Of a DNA stretch of 64,000 bases, positions 1 to 4,986 are shown one piece after another. Each line of letters opens with the position of its first letter. The first letter of the stretch is position 1. The DNA is from an uncultured Sulfitobacter sp. (lineage in GTDB: Bacteria; Pseudomonadota; Alphaproteobacteria; Rhodobacterales; Rhodobacteraceae): the NCBI GenBank assembly GCA_963933905.1, contig CAWVWS010000002.1, forward strand, positions 8,382 to 72,381, read 5' to 3'. The position numbers and the translations under genes were made by a program. Under the pieces are notes generated by a model. That model saw nothing but the letters and a program-made list of their open reading frames with translations, ran no database searches and was not told the DNA's origin.

Positions 1-23
1 TTTCGCCCATGTGGAAACGGTTG

Positions 24-55
24 AGGGGTGCCTGAAAGGGCGCCCCTTTTTCTTT
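24..55 (+). terminator. Rho-independent terminator of a gene upstream of the window
   Basis: Stem AGGGGTGCCT-GAAA-GGGCGCCCCT (10 bp including G-U pairs, GNRA loop) running into a TTTTTCTTT tract. Confidence 0.8.
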
Positions 56-97
56 GCCGTATCACGTTGCATGTTGGTGACTGAACATAAGGATCAC

Positions 98-1714
98 ATG
101 AATATGTGCTTTCTCCCTCTCGCTCTCGCCGCTTTGCCCCTCCCTGCGCTGGCTGACACATATACCGTGACCTCGGCTCCTACGGCTGTAACCGTCTACA
201 GCGGCTTTGCGATGGTAACCCGCGAGATTAGCGTCGATGTGAGCGCGGGCACCCATGAGGTTGTGCTTCCCAATTTGCCGCAGTGGATTGATGCAGGCAG
301 CTTGCGCGTCTCGCTCAGCGGTGCAGACCTCAGCGGCACGCGGTTGCGTACAGATGCGCTTCCTCCGCAGCCCAACAGCGACAGTGCAGCGGTGGTAGCT
401 GCGGAGCAACAAATCAAGACAGCAGAACGCGCTTTGCGTGACCTGAATGATGCCGCACAAGATGCGGGGTTTGGCGCAAACGCCGCAGATGCACGGGTGA
501 AATTTCTAGAGAGCCTCGCATCCAGCGATACCTTGCCCTCGGCTCCACAAGCATTGGCCGAGCTTGGCCAGATGATCGATGCCGAGATTTTAAGCGCTCT
601 TCTTGCACAAGCCCAAGCCCTTCGGAATGTCAGAGATATCGCGGAAGGGCGCGAAGCACTTGAGCGTAATCTTGCAGATGCCCGTGCAGCCCTCGCCGCG
701 CTCACCCCACCCACAGAACCAAAGACGCTCCTCGCCTTGTCTGTTGCCGCAAAGGAAGCTGGGACTGTGATTGCATCGGTAAGCTATCCCGCCCGCGCCT
801 CTTGGCAGCCCACATATGATGTGGTGCTTTCACGAGGTGATGATGACCGCATATCATTGCGCCGCGCCGCGCTGATCTATCAAAACAGTGGCGAGAATTG
901 GGAGGACGTGACACTCACGCTCTCCACTCTTGCGCCAAGCGGTAAGGTTATACCCTCCGAGCTTTATCCGCCATTGCTCCGCTTTGAAGATCCTGAGCGG
1001 CGCAAAGAACTCCAACGGTCCAGTTTGAGTGCTGATGTGGCCGGCGCACCAATGGTTGCAATGGAAGCAGCACCCGTCCCGCGACCTAACTTTGACGGAC
1101 CCGGTGTGACGTACACACTGCCCTCCCCGCTTACCATCGCGCAGGATGCCGAAGGGGTGCGGGTCGAACTGGACACACTCGAATTTGAATCCCGCGTATT
1201 CGCGCGGGCAATTCCTTCGCGCGATACAACTGCTTTCCTGATGGCAGAAGCCACAAACGAAAGCCTAGAGCCCCTGCTTGCCGCAAACAGTGCTCAGGTG
1301 TTCATTGATGGCGCCCTTATGGGTCGCAGCAGTTTTGCCGCAGTGCCGGCAGGCGGGACACTTACCCAAGCATTTGGTCCCATCGAAGATCTTCGTCTCA
1401 GCCACAAGATTATCGACTAGAGCGAAGGGGATCGCGGTCTTATCAGCAGGAGCAATGCCCAGACGCAGGAAGTGCGCATGAACATCGAAAACCTTGGCAG
1501 CGAAACTTGGGATGTCGAGTTACTAGAAGCGCGCCCCTACAGTGAACAGGACGATCTGGTGATAGACTGGAATGCCCAACCCAAGGCGAGCGTGACCGAC
1601 GTGGACGAGCGCCGCGGCCTTGTGCAACGGAACTTTTCTCTGGCCGCTCAGGCCAGCCAGCAGATCACAATCGAACAAGTTGTGCGCTGGCCCGATGGGA
1701 AGGTGCTGCGCTAG
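98..1714 (+). pseudogene. DUF4140/DUF4139 domain secreted protein interrupted by an in-frame TAG at 1418-1420
   Basis: AAGGA SD before ATG 98; signal peptide; motifs ASWQPTYD and QNSGENWEDVTLTLST. ORFs 11..1420 and 1472..1714 share a frame and read HKIID*SEGDRGLISRSN across the stop; reconstructed length 539 codons. Confidence 0.85.
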
Positions 1715-2436
1715 TCTAGCGCGGCAGGCTTAGGCATAGCATCAACGCCCTGCACTGCCTCCACAACAGGAGGGAATTGGCATGGTGCGGGTCCCCCAAA
1801 CAGCTGAACAAGTGTGGCGTAGTCTTCACCAATGTCGCCTGCATTGCACAGATGCCTGCCTGTGGTTGCCATATGCACACCAAGATCAGCACCTGCAGAC
1901 CGCAGTTCCATCCCCTCACATGCGAGGCGGTTGATAAGATCAGGCCAGCTTTTCGCCACGCCAAAGAGGGCCGCGAGGACAGCGCGCCGCGTTGGATCAA
2001 TCTGGCCAGCAGGCATGACGGCTAAATGCGTTTTTGCATGGGGGTGACCGGGCAAGTCTGCGCCAAACTGTTTCACCAGCTTTGCATAGGCAAAACCCAG
2101 TTCCGACCCTTTACAAATCCGCGTGCCGCAACTCGATTTTATCAGGTCAATGCCACCCCCCGCTGCACGCACCACATATCCATGAGGGCGCAGGCGTTGC
2201 GCCAAATCATCCCACCCAGACGCCTCGGCAAAATCACGTGCGAGGAGCGCCTGTAAGGCAGCGAGGAGGCGCGCATCCGTACCCTCAGTTCGCTCACTAT
2301 TAAGCTGGCGATCAACCTCACGCTTGAGCAGTTGGCGCACCATATGCCCAATGGTCACGTCCCGCGCTGTGGCGACACGCTGAGCCCCAGACAACAGGTT
2401 GCGCGGTAGTTTGAGAGTGACTGATTCTAATTCCAT
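1711..2436 (-). CDS. Hypothetical DNA-binding protein: N-terminal ribbon-helix-helix plus two tandem ~60 aa relaxase-middle-like repeats
   Basis: MELESVTLKLPRNLL...TIGHMVRQLLKREV fits a CopG/RHH pattern; internal repeats ASGWDDLAQRLRPHGY...YAKLVKQFG and AKSWPDLINRLACEGM...YATLVQLFG; start placed at ATG 2436. Confidence 0.75.
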   Translation of the reverse strand: MELESVTLKLPRNLLSGAQRVATARDVTIGHMVRQLLKREVDRQLNSERTEGTDARLLAALQALLARDFAEASGWDDLAQRLRPHGYVVRAAGGGIDLIKSSCGTRICKGSELGFAYAKLVKQFGADLPGHPHAKTHLAVMPAGQIDPTRRAVLAALFGVAKSWPDLINRLACEGMELRSAGADLGVHMATTGRHLCNAGDIGEDYATLVQLFGGPAPCQFPPVVEAVQGVDAMPKPAALD

Positions 2437-2459
2437 ACCCAAGCCTGACTCAGGTACGG

Positions 2460-2474
2460 TTAACGCTTTGTTAA
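2460..2474 (-). promoter_or_regulatory. CtrA-binding box (TTAA-N7-TTAAC)
   Basis: Minus strand reads TTAA-CAAAGCG-TTAAC, about 24 nt upstream of ATG 2436; overlaps the sbtB stop codon. Confidence 0.65.
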
Positions 2475-2782
2475 AACCGTTCAGCCCGCAGGACATCGCA
2501 ATCCACGATGCTCACCACACCGATATGACGCTCGACCACGGCAAAGGCAGCATCCAAGAGAGCGTCAAGACGCTCGGGTTTGATGATACAGACAACCTGC
2601 ACCATACCCTGTGCGCGGCTTACTTGCCCCGACCGTGTCCAGGCCCCCGACCGCCCCGACCCGCCCAAAACAGGCAGGACTGAATATCCCGTAACTCCCG
2701 TCTTGCGGAGCGCATCGGTAAGGCGGGATTCCATCACATTTTCGATGGTGATTTCCACCCGCTTTGCCTTGTGAGTTTCCAT
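2471..2782 (-). CDS. sbtB: PII-like regulator SbtB
   Basis: 103 aa; KRVEITIE...GVTGYSVLPVLGGSGRSG PII-like pattern; starts 3 nt after the sbtA stop. Confidence 0.8.
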   Translation of the reverse strand: METHKAKRVEITIENVMESRLTDALRKTGVTGYSVLPVLGGSGRSGAWTRSGQVSRAQGMVQVVCIIKPERLDALLDAAFAVVERHIGVVSIVDCDVLRAERF

Positions 2783-2785
2783 AGT

Positions 2786-3769
2786 TCAACCTCCGCTAAC
2801 GGCCATGGCGACACCGACATAAAGCGGAATACCAATGGTCAGATTAAAGGGAAAAGTAACACCCAGCGACAGGGTGAGATAAAGAGACGGGTTCGCCTCG
2901 GGCAATGCAACGCGTATCGCCGCAGGCACGGCGATATAGGAGGCCGAAGCAGACAGCACCATCATCAGGGCCACACCGCCAGCGCTCAGCCCCAACAGCA
3001 AACCAGCACCCAGTCCAAACATGGAGCCGACAAGCGGCATCAACACACCAAATGCGAACACACCGCGGGTCAGCACACCGCCACCTCCGCGCAAACCCCG
3101 TCCGGCGACCAACCCCATATCCAACAGGAAGAGGCACAGCACCCCTTTGAGCGGATTGACGATAAAGCTTTCGATCTCCTTGAGACCCTGCTCACCCGTG
3201 ACCCAGCCGATTGCAAAAGCACCAACCAGCAAAACGATTGAACCATTGAGCATGATCTCCCGCAGGAGCGCGCTGTCCATCCCTTTGGACTCCGCACCGC
3301 CGCCGCGTGAAACAAGCCAGAGCGCCGAAAGGATCGCAGGCGCTTCCATGGCTGCGGCAACCGCGACCATATAGCCCTCGGACGGGATGCCCCGCCCTTC
3401 CAACACCGAAGTCGCGGCAACAAAGGTCACAATCGAGATAGAGCCATAGTGCGCCGCAACTGCCGCTGCATCCAAACGGCTCATTCCTGTCATAACCTTC
3501 AGCAGACCAAATGCGATGATCGGCAAAAGGGCAGACAGGATTATTCCCGCAAGTAAAGAAAAGCCGAGCCGCGCATCAAGCCCGTAGGAAGCAACACTTG
3601 CGCCACCCTTAAATCCAATGGCGAATAGCAAATATATCGACATGCCCTTTGCCACTGCTTCAGGGATGTTCAAATCAGAACGCGCAAGTGCTGCCAGAAG
3701 GCCCAGCACAAAGCTCAGAATAATGGGGGAGAGCAAGTTCTGCCCTGCGAGGCTCAGGAAGTCAGACAT
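2786..3769 (-). CDS. sbtA: Sodium-dependent bicarbonate transporter, SbtA family
   Basis: Multi-TM protein with SbtA motifs SIYLLFAIGFKGG, AAHYGSISIVTF, SASYIAVPAA and SLGVTFPFN. Confidence 0.9.
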   Translation of the reverse strand: MSDFLSLAGQNLLSPIILSFVLGLLAALARSDLNIPEAVAKGMSIYLLFAIGFKGGASVASYGLDARLGFSLLAGIILSALLPIIAFGLLKVMTGMSRLDAAAVAAHYGSISIVTFVAATSVLEGRGIPSEGYMVAVAAAMEAPAILSALWLVSRGGGAESKGMDSALLREIMLNGSIVLLVGAFAIGWVTGEQGLKEIESFIVNPLKGVLCLFLLDMGLVAGRGLRGGGGVLTRGVFAFGVLMPLVGSMFGLGAGLLLGLSAGGVALMMVLSASASYIAVPAAIRVALPEANPSLYLTLSLGVTFPFNLTIGIPLYVGVAMAVSGG

Positions 3770-3807
3770 TCAAACACCTTGTTTAGAAGAACCGATCACA
3801 CGCTAGC

Positions 3808-4458
3808 CTATACGGGCTCGAACAAGTGCGTTTCGGGGCTGTAAAACTCCAGACCACCTTCGGCAATATCGGTCCACATGCCATGTATCGTCAAATCACC
3901 TGAGTTGACCTTCTCCGCAAGCCACGGAAACGTCATCAGATTTTCAAGCGAGATCATGACCGAATGCTTTTCCAGCTGGCGAACCTGCTCGGCGGGATCG
4001 GCAATATCTTTGACCAACTCGTACTTGGGCCGCAGTATATCCATCCACCGGCCGACAAAGCTCTCTTTTTCGTCGAGGTCGGGGGCATGGCCTGTGCACA
4101 TGTCCAGACACCCTTGTACACCGCCACAGTTCGAATGACCCAATACAATTAGATGCGCAACTTTCAGCACACGCACTGCGTATTCAACGGCAGCAGAGGT
4201 CCCGTGCTGCGCCCCGTCAGGTTTATAGGCCGGTACAAGATTGGCGACATTCCGGTGGATAAAGAACTCTCCCTGATCCGCGCCAAAAATAGATGTGACA
4301 TGCACGCGGCTATCACAGCAGGAAATGACCATGGCGCGGGGATGTTGCCCCCCTGTCGCGAGCTTGCGATACCATGCGCTGTTTTCGGCGTAAGTGGTTG
4401 CTTTCCAACCGTGATAGCGCTGCAGTAAATAGCTTGGTAAGGGCTTTGCCTCGTTCAT
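3808..4458 (-). CDS. Beta-class carbonic anhydrase
   Basis: Zn-ligand motifs CCDSRV and GHSNCGG, plus HRNVANLVP; start placed at MNEAKPLP (4458). Confidence 0.93.
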   Translation of the reverse strand: MNEAKPLPSYLLQRYHGWKATTYAENSAWYRKLATGGQHPRAMVISCCDSRVHVTSIFGADQGEFFIHRNVANLVPAYKPDGAQHGTSAAVEYAVRVLKVAHLIVLGHSNCGGVQGCLDMCTGHAPDLDEKESFVGRWMDILRPKYELVKDIADPAEQVRQLEKHSVMISLENLMTFPWLAEKVNSGDLTIHGMWTDIAEGGLEFYSPETHLFEPV

Positions 4459-4605
4459 GGAAAGCGGGCTCCTGATGATTGTTCGCCCACAGTTAGACTG
4501 AATTATCGCCGAATTCGAGCGAAAACACCGCTTGGCGGCAACCATTTGAAAACCCCTGCCCCTCATAAGGATCCCAGCCGTGGGGGCATAATTTAGGGGT
4601 GAGAG

Positions 4606-4986
4606 ATGAACGACGTTGTAAATATCCGTGTTGCCGAACAAATCCAGTTGGATCAGGTCAGGCTGGGAACACTATATGCGCAGTTGGGGGAGGCAGGTGC
4701 AGGAAATGTTATCTCGCGGGCAATGGAAGAGCTGGCCGTGCGTTTGGCACAGTGTGATGCGCTGTGGCGTGCCAAAAACAGCGTGCAGCTGCGCAAACAT
4801 GCGCGGTCACTAATTGCGATTGCTGACCAGATCGGGATGCACCGCCTTGCGCAGGTCGCAGCTGATGTAACCGTTTGCCTTGATTCCGACGATGACGTTG
4901 CCGTTGCCGCCACATTGTCACGGATGCTGCGGATTGGAGAGCGATCATTGTCGGCTATTTGGTCGATGGAAGATCTGAGCATCTGA
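4606..4986 (+). CDS. Hpt-fold-like protein apparently lacking the phosphoacceptor His
   Basis: 126 aa helical protein; LRKHARSLIAIADQIGMHRL aligns with the Hpt consensus aH.LKGsa..lG..rL, with Arg at the His position. Confidence 0.65.
   Translation: MNDVVNIRVAEQIQLDQVRLGTLYAQLGEAGAGNVISRAMEELAVRLAQCDALWRAKNSVQLRKHARSLIAIADQIGMHRLAQVAADVTVCLDSDDDVAVAATLSRMLRIGERSLSAIWSMEDLSI

Follow-up and report, generated by a model that had tools for sequence, protein, structure and literature searches.

A ribbon-helix-helix protein with relaxase-middle-like repeats and a CtrA-type box on the chromosome of Rhodobacteraceae

Described relaxosome and CtrA systems and the Sulfitobacter locus

In relaxases of the TraI, MobA(P) and VirD2 types, the nuclease domain with its catalytic Tyr and His triad is directly followed by a middle domain (TraI_middle in Pfam). 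In MOBP systems, as set out in the accessible part of a review (PMC12857230), an auxiliary ribbon-helix-helix (RHH) protein binds the origin of transfer (oriT) and recruits the relaxase. The stretch of DNA analyzed here, called the window, is 64,000 nucleotides (64 kb) long and belongs to an uncultured Sulfitobacter sp. (contig CAWVWS010000002.1, positions 8,382 to 72,381 of the forward strand). Near its beginning, a gene on the reverse strand (window 1711-2436) encodes a protein of 241 amino acids, P0001, in which an N-terminal RHH domain is joined to a non-catalytic module, present twice, whose descent from the relaxase middle domain shows in the profile comparisons. A CtrA-type box precedes the start codon. 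A relaxosome origin and control by CtrA and quorum sensing are both supported, and this uncharacterized chromosomal family probably acts as a DNA-binding regulator or adaptor at the second tier of the CtrA/quorum-sensing program, rather than as a nuclease or a mobile-element gene.

As with the TraI/MobA(P)/VirD2 relaxases, the repeat of P0001 corresponds to the domain directly behind the nuclease domain. The nuclease domain, and hence the catalytic Tyr and His triad, is missing, however; the gene is chromosomal with a CtrA-type box, and its repeats bear a Cys/P-G-H-x-H signature of their own and fall on a separate branch. With the auxiliaries NikA, MobC, TraJ and PcfF, P0001 shares a small N-terminal RHH domain, and a NikA-like gene found at another locus (L079, see below) is weakly matched. 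Here, in contrast, the RHH domain and the relaxase-derived domain are parts of one polypeptide rather than partners in trans, no relaxase is found beside the gene, in the window or in its 89.95%-complete genome, and the NikA-like Pfam model matches 0 of 122 family members. The genes of the CtrA/quorum-sensing regulon of Rhodobacterales (flagella, cyclic di-GMP, regulators of the gene transfer agent [GTA], competence) have the TTAA-N7-TTAAC box in common with the P0001 gene, from which that regulon differs in that the orthologue of Phaeobacter inhibens is unresponsive (PMC12363192, Table S6). The layout of an RHH domain followed by a second domain recalls NikR, CopG and the type II antitoxins, and the RHH parts superpose closely (root-mean-square deviation, rmsd, 1.0-1.1 Å), but the C-terminal domain of P0001 is of another kind and there is no toxin partner.

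Neither domain is new to Pfam, and CtrA regulons have been studied in depth. In the literature searched, no paper names this RHH and TraI_middle-like family, in line with the initial annotation of the window, which had called it uncharacterized; the combination of the two domains, the restriction to Rhodobacteraceae as a free-standing gene of the chromosome (within the genomes searched), the signature, the promoter and the module shared with a helicase are all undescribed there. A non-catalytic part of relaxases is reused outside conjugation in other Alphaproteobacteria, with the BID domain of the Bartonella effectors. That is another domain, located at a C-terminal secretion signal and put to another use, and a secretion role for P0001 is not suggested.

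The RHH domain and the relaxase-related repeats

The open reading frame (ORF) extends over 1711-2496. Its start is taken as the ATG at 2436, picked by alignment from the conserved N-terminus of the orthologues (M-E-x-E-x-V-T-L-K-L-P), which gives 241 codons and the stop. The N-terminal RHH-like segment of the initial annotation is borne out. Over this part, the family profile finds chains of VapB26 and CopG (E 2.2e-4 to 5e-3, VapB26 at 2.2e-4). In the AlphaFold 2 (AF2) model of the 241-residue protein (mean predicted local distance difference test score, pLDDT, of 87.5), residues 1-48 superpose on CopA_SO (6iya) with a template-modeling (TM) score of 0.88 by target and an rmsd of 1.1 Å. The same part superposes on PutA and Arc with an rmsd of about 1 Å (1.0-1.1 Å for PutA and CopA_SO), and the VIA Z scores lie between 6.9 and 7.2 (TacA1 7.2, CopA_SO 7.1). 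When the whole model is searched against solved structures, RHH proteins are the only matches. Residues 1 to about 50 (2287-2436, reverse strand) are thus modeled with the strand, helix and helix of the RHH (CopG/Arc/MetJ) fold, which takes about 45 residues, and it is this predicted fold that suggests DNA binding by the protein. Searched as a single sequence, P0001 gives only chance-level matches in the PDB (E 0.38) and 0 families in PHROGs.

Two tandem repeats follow on the same strand, at about residues 55-125 (repeat 1, 2062-2274) and at about residues 148-213 (repeat 2, 1798-1995). The initial annotation had recognized both, with a length of about 60 residues where we find about 70. Residues 62-129 and 166-233 align without any gap, with 24 of 68 positions identical (35%, E 3e-13), and AF2 models both as helix-helix-three strands-two short helices. 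Repeat 1 matches Pfam TraI_middle (PF22863) with E 1.7e-5 and the NCBIfam model TraI_MobP_relax (NF041893) with E 3.9e-6, residues 66-127 falling on profile positions 203-266 of 502. Repeat 2, a diverged copy of repeat 1, matches the family profile (E 3.6e-16). Among the aligned family members, TraI_middle is found in 73 of 122 (E <= 1e-3).

The relation to complete relaxases appears with a profile made of 21 single-domain family members (A2) and run over 401 genomes of the class. The profile matches 11 of them (E <= 1e-5), and nine of these lie in other alphaproteobacterial families; in the nine genomes it covers the domain part only, inside ORFs of 333-756 amino acids. Four of these ORFs, matched by the family profile with E 5e-13 to 2e-14, were examined, and each contains Relaxase PF03432 (the MobA/VirD2 nuclease) with TraI_middle directly behind it. 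Among predicted models of the ESM Atlas, TM scores of 0.69-0.72 (by query) are reached with clusters that are 100% Relaxase. Because of these profile matches to real relaxases and the TM scores of the predicted structures, homology of the repeats with the middle domain located behind the nuclease domain of MobA/VirD2/TraI-type relaxases is supported, and the resemblance noted in the initial annotation holds. The nuclease domain itself is absent from P0001, with the RHH domain in its N-terminal place. Relaxase PF03432 gives no match in the protein (E <= 1), and it is not found in the 89.95%-complete genome of the window (2.97 Mb, label G000), an assembly of a kind from which plasmids are often missing; the initial annotation, likewise, had seen no HUH or catalytic relaxase part.

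Some observations weigh against the homology. The TraI_middle score of the window protein (25.4 bits) is below the curated cut-off of 27.6, and that of NF041893 (26.1 bits) is far under its cut-off of 250. Repeat 2 has no Pfam match of its own, so that it is linked to the relaxase domain through repeat 1 and the family profile. With the domain alone (single-domain model, pLDDT 91.5), nothing usable is found among solved structures (Foldseek best E 0.64; VIA-align best Z 3.4), and the activity of the domain is therefore not readable from a known fold. Of the structural comparison proposed in the initial annotation, the part with predicted relaxase models is positive and the part with solved structures negative. 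The missing solved counterpart fits the prototype table of the review cited above, in which the MOBP relaxases, RP4 TraI among them, are without a PDB entry (PMC12857230).

The close relatives comprise 164 proteins at E <= 1e-3, with the frame intact; the best 120 of the 164 are either named Sulfitobacter or nameless, and all are annotated as hypothetical. In an exhaustive search, 256 clusters of 50%-identity representatives match (E <= 1e-3), mostly with 130-200 amino acids. We compared 401 genomes of the Rhodobacteraceae, one per genus except in the window's own genus (G000 and G111). P0001 is matched in 105 of them at E <= 1e-3 and in 38 at E <= 1e-20. In 36 of the 38 strong matches (the exceptions are G000 and G284), residues 1 to about 150 only are matched, in frames of about 150-270 amino acids. 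Such limited matches indicate that the usual form in Rhodobacteraceae is an RHH domain with one domain behind it, of about 150-180 amino acids; the two repeats, which the initial annotation had taken as the form of the family, are not the rule. Within the genomes searched, and as judged by the profile matches, the family was found free-standing only in Rhodobacteraceae.

From 67 domain copies a tree was built (71 columns, many forks unresolved), in which the four relaxase domains, used as outgroup, form a separate clade (100/99). The copies of the second domain form one clade (97/88) and those of the first domain one group (78/77). The single clade of second domains points to one tandem duplication of the single-domain protein, specific to the two-domain, Sulfitobacter-like lineage.

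In the alignments, a Cys and a P-G-H-x-H motif set the chromosomal clade apart from the relaxase domains. Over 497 domain instances (490 of the family and 7 from relaxases, helicases or a plasmid), the Cys (Cys108 in P0001) is kept in 94%; in the motif, the first His is kept in 65% and the second in 53%. The motif reads P-G-H-P-H in P0001 (residues 129-133, 2038-2052, 3' of repeat 1) and, together with Cys108, marks the protein as a member of the chromosomal clade. Both elements are absent from the four relaxases examined. A four-ligand Cys/His metal site is speculative, the pattern being inconsistent: in 105 instances the Cys is present with both His but no fourth candidate ligand.

An acidic-hydrophobic tail closes many of the single-domain members, for example D-D-F-D-V-I-E-P-F, or variants such as D-D-I-I-L-F-E-D-E (see P0134, P0164, P0202 and P0273), which we take to recall the docking tails of SSB and F TraD. 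A strict pattern of this tail is present in 45 of 191 single-domain and 11 of 119 two-domain members. P0001 is without it.

The module occurs in other contexts. In six ORFs of about 1,850 amino acids, which have DEAD and UvrD helicase domains, the same Cys/P-G-H-x-H module forms the C-terminus, as in L076 (710-6244, forward strand, E 3.8e-22) and L077 (372-6029, forward strand, E 5.3e-18), and the ORF of L077 also ends in an acidic tail. No CtrA-type box is present upstream of these two helicase ORFs. A member of 161 amino acids (WP_011331414.1, hypothetical) is encoded on plasmid pC of Cereibacter sphaeroides 2.4.1 (NZ_CP030275.1; L078, 5749-6234, forward strand), where it adjoins a LuxR-family regulator, two response regulators and two ISNCY transposases; the paper on CerM/CerN (PMC11655674), in the portion available, has no bearing on this paralogue. 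At L079, a NikA-like RHH gene (1203-1802, forward strand) overlaps the start of a relaxase gene with the middle domain (1774-3459, forward strand). Such a layout could be the source from which a fusion of RHH and middle domain arises when the nuclease is lost.

The CtrA-type box and the expression of orthologues

The box TTAACAAAGCGTTAAC (2459-2474, read from 2474 to 2459 on the reverse strand) starts at -38 from the ATG. It is the perfect TTAA-N7-TTAAC of the initial annotation, which put it about 24 nt upstream; the distance from its end to the ATG is 22 nt. No other TTAA-N7-TTAAC occurs in the window (0.05 expected; 5 of 100 shuffles had at least one), and the genome of 2.97 Mb has 24 strand-hits versus about 7 expected from base composition. 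CtrA is encoded in this genome (NF045991, 400.9 bits versus a cut-off of 350). The TAA stop of the upstream P-II gene (2471-2473) falls inside the box, and the same overlap is found at several orthologous loci in other genera.

The box was scored over its nine defined positions, with starts from -42 to -36 (seven positions), in two sets of orthologous loci (29 + 29 of 36, seven loci being dropped where the match does not begin at the start codon). Two starts were shifted to the next ATG, and the merging of two duplicate pairs left 56 distinct loci from 58. There are no mismatches in 8 loci, one in 25, two in 19, three in 3 and five in 1, hence two or fewer in 52 of 56, and the box starts at -38 or -39 in 49 of 56. 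In the background, two or fewer mismatches within the seven positions occur at 0.0023 per locus, or 0.14 expected over the 58 loci before merging. The box is clearly conserved in place among orthologues, and the conservation on which the initial annotation had made its reading depend is thus present. The best-kept part is the right half, TTAACCA, found in 10 of 56 loci and as close variants in most others. An A-G-A-C-T-like stretch is conserved at about -14 to -10 in many loci.

The first half, TTAACA, occupies the -35 position for a transcript that begins at about the ATG, for which reason a leaderless or nearly leaderless mRNA is suspected; TTAACA may at the same time serve as the -35 element. 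Such an overlap of CtrA boxes with the -35 element occurs in Caulobacter promoters. A scan with the sigma-70 consensus called no promoter, a result judged uninformative for an alphaproteobacterium.

The expression data concern the orthologue of Dinoroseobacter shibae (L018), a protein of 157 amino acids (E 1.7e-30, 41% identity over residues 6-144) that exact sequence look-up identifies as Dshi_3239 (NCBI name). According to the arrays in supplementary file 2 of Wang et al. 2014 (PMC4046655), its log2 fold changes versus wild type in exponential phase are -1.44 in the ctrA, -1.51 in the cckA, -1.32 in the chpT and -0.55 in the luxI1 knockout. In stationary phase, in the same order, they are -3.06, -2.84, -2.83 and -3.21, with adjusted p values of 8e-6, 6e-5, 2e-5 and 5e-8. 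The neighbors Dshi_3237 (DUF897, Sbt_1 type), Dshi_3238, Dshi_3240 (asd) and Dshi_3241 show no change beyond |0.52| when ctrA, cckA or chpT is knocked out, and Dshi_3243 reaches 0.57 in the luxI1 knockout (PMC4046655, same file). In Koppenhöfer et al. 2019 (PMC6473078, Table S2), Dshi_3239 is among the 243 genes that answer autoinducer given to the luxI1 mutant, with +0.74 at 120 min and +2.11 at 180 min (adjusted p 1e-5 and 3e-42); at the same times, ctrA reaches +5.0 and +5.9 and the GTA capsid gene +3.7 and +8.1. The timing of Dshi_3239 is like that of the capsid gene. By these published values, Dshi_3239 is a late-induced gene whose expression depends on CtrA, CckA, ChpT and the LuxI1 autoinducer. 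In the literature searched, as far as the texts were available, Dshi_3239 is not mentioned in any main text and occurs as a hypothetical protein in supplementary tables only; one small supplementary file of PMC7232146 does not mention it.

Several results speak against direct control by CtrA through the box, or limit its weight. The count of 52 in 56 overstates the independent support and is no probability, since orthologous loci are kin. The other perfect boxes of the genome precede ordinary-looking genes (the eight ORFs scanned are an SNase-like nuclease, a GNAT, a LysR, a LysE and a DAO oxidoreductase, and three without a family), so that a perfect box alone proves nothing. In D. shibae, the flags for a CtrA site by position weight matrix (PWM) are False for Dshi_3239 at 80% and at 82.5% (PMC6473078), in keeping with a first half-site that is degenerate at that locus; with no site called, the CtrA dependence of Dshi_3239 may be indirect. 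In P. inhibens, PGA1_c31470, the orthologue by the mapping of that paper itself, is unchanged in three knockouts (-0.01, -0.01, -0.04; PMC12363192, Table S6), in an organism that, according to the same paper, has an inactive GTA cluster and no response of gafA and rbsVW. CtrA-dependent expression, which the initial annotation had expected, is therefore found in D. shibae but not in P. inhibens. The SNase-like nuclease gene mentioned above (G000 C20:26620-27330, reverse strand; L084) has its perfect TTAA-N7-TTAAC 72 nt upstream.

If the box were not a working CtrA site, it could serve as the promoter, or as an operator for some other regulator, perhaps for autorepression by the RHH protein, and the CtrA dependence in D. 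shibae would then be indirect. RHH proteins commonly autoregulate, the first half of the box is like a -35 hexamer, and many orthologues have TTTAC, TTCAC or CTAAC variants. The PWM scan of D. shibae, without a CtrA site, is on the same side (PMC6473078). But the three phosphorelay knockouts all give the same loss of expression, and the two halves of the box are one helical turn apart, like the TTAA-N7-TTAAC consensus cited in PMC4046655. The conservation is, moreover, best in TTAACCA, a sequence that matches the CtrA half-site. For the control step, the only one on which it bears, we regard this explanation as improbable.

Possible roles and neighboring genes

In the reading that we prefer, that of a regulator or adaptor of the CtrA/quorum-sensing program, phosphorylated CtrA would bind the box, part of which coincides with the likely -35 element, and would activate the promoter, with a transcript from the ATG or close by. 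The product would dimerize through the RHH domain and bind specific DNA, and the relaxase-derived module, with the acidic-hydrophobic tail in many orthologues, would be a docking surface for a partner.

The surroundings of the gene were compared over 94 ORFs around orthologous genes, at 32 of 36 named loci. The recurrent neighbors are Pro_CA, Sbt_1 with P-II, DUF4139/4140 and asd; in a second group of seven loci, the neighbors are RlmN and a fatty-acid desaturase. None of the 94 ORFs is a relaxase, type IV secretion system (T4SS), integrase or phage gene. Neither coupling-protein nor T4SS genes adjoin the gene in the window or at the 32 loci, core metabolic genes being found instead (oriT itself was not searched for). 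The P0001 gene is chromosomal, as the initial annotation stated, in a core-gene neighborhood without mobile genes.

A direct part in CtrA-controlled DNA exchange, in which the protein would bind DNA and help to package, receive or recombine GTA or competence DNA, was also envisaged in the initial annotation. Dshi_3239 is induced at 120-180 min alongside the GTA capsid gene and rsbV/W (PMC6473078), the P. inhibens orthologue is unresponsive, as are gafA and rbsVW, where the GTA cluster is inactive (PMC12363192), and the module descends from a DNA-transfer enzyme. Co-timing with the GTA is, however, common to many CtrA targets, and the gene distribution gives no support to a GTA or incoming-DNA role. 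GTA_TIM (PF13547) is present in 354 of the 401 Rhodobacteraceae genomes versus the 105 with a P0001 match (38 at E <= 1e-20), so that most GTA-bearing genomes searched are without such a match. GTA_TIM is found neither in the window genome (89.95% complete) nor in G139 (99% complete), despite a strong orthologue in the latter (E 1.9e-33). We consider such a part unlikely. As a separate observation, about 18 of the Rhodobacteraceae genomes, among them the complete genome G111 of the same genus, have a weak GTA_TIM match only (E ~1e-38 to 1e-41 versus ~1e-150 elsewhere); judging from these matches, the lineage of the window may be without a standard GTA cluster.

The protein might otherwise be a host accessory or decoy that plugs into the relaxosomes of resident plasmids and tunes or blocks conjugative transfer. 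The recruitment of MOBP relaxases by oriT-binding RHH auxiliaries (PMC12857230) and the T4SS among the quorum-sensing-controlled traits of D. shibae (PMC6473078) are in favor of such a role, as is L079, where the NikA-like gene (E 1.4e-13) is just upstream of the domain-bearing relaxase and is matched by the family RHH profile with E 6e-5 in a small search. But most genomes with the gene have no relaxase match to the same query, and the window genome has none, although plasmids are often missing from such assemblies. The chromosomal clade is, in addition, separate from the relaxase domains (100/99) and bears its own Cys and P-G-H-x-H signature, and the RHH part matches generic CopG/antitoxin models and in none of the 122 members the NikA-like one. 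This role is very doubtful.

Very unlikely, too, is a NikR-like repressor with a ligand- or metal-sensing C-terminal domain that controls the adjoining genes of inorganic carbon (carbonic anhydrase, Sbt_1, P-II). The near-invariant Cys and the P-G-H-x-H motif could be seen in this light, and the gene adjoins a Pro_CA, Sbt_1/P-II or DUF4139 gene in the window and at 14 of 32 loci. Yet the seven loci of the second group have RlmN and the desaturase in these places, Dshi_3237 and Dshi_3238 are not co-regulated with Dshi_3239 (PMC4046655), no full set of four ligands is conserved (the Cys and both His occur together in 236 of 427 instances), and metal binding is pure conjecture. That the gene encodes an antitoxin with a toxin partner, or is left over from a mobile element and decaying, is extremely improbable: although the best structural matches of the RHH part are antitoxins (TacA1 Z 7.2, CopA_SO Z 7.1), no toxin-sized gene adjoins it (downstream are the convergent DUF4139 gene in the window, and asd or others elsewhere), the frame is intact in the 164 close relatives with 256 clusters at 50% identity, and position and promoter are conserved across genera.

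CtrA and quorum sensing set when roseobacters swim, divide unevenly and exchange DNA, and many of their target genes lack a known function. As a regulator or adaptor under this control, the family would be a concrete candidate for a link between cell-cycle control and DNA handling, since it is conserved, has a CtrA-type box and is built from parts of the conjugation machinery; its response is strong in the genetically tractable D. shibae, the one model organism where it was measured as responsive. It would also be a case of host takeover of a relaxase domain. A more specific form of this reading, to which we give little credence, is a host-owned relaxosome without a nuclease: an RHH protein timed by CtrA and quorum sensing, with a docking module common to the 1,850-amino-acid double helicase, would bring a shared DNA-processing partner to specific sites on the chromosome in the DNA-exchange phase of the population. 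If true, it could, for instance, tag DNA that is to be exported or taken up, or give plasmid machinery access to the chromosome.

In the window, the genes upstream of the P0001 gene on the same strand are those of a carbonic anhydrase, Sbt_1 (bicarbonate-transporter type) and a P-II-like protein, a row that spans 2471-4641 (reverse strand). The P-II-like gene nearest to the box (2471-2782, reverse strand; P-II profile E 4.2e-13) is taken as context of the P0001 gene. Downstream, the convergent DUF4140/DUF4139 gene (11-1714, forward strand) is a single frame of 567 codons interrupted by one in-frame TAG at 1418-1420. This TAG aligns with Arg in six of seven orthologues, and the flanks are conserved on both sides; a recent nonsense mutation, an assembly error and read-through are possible explanations.

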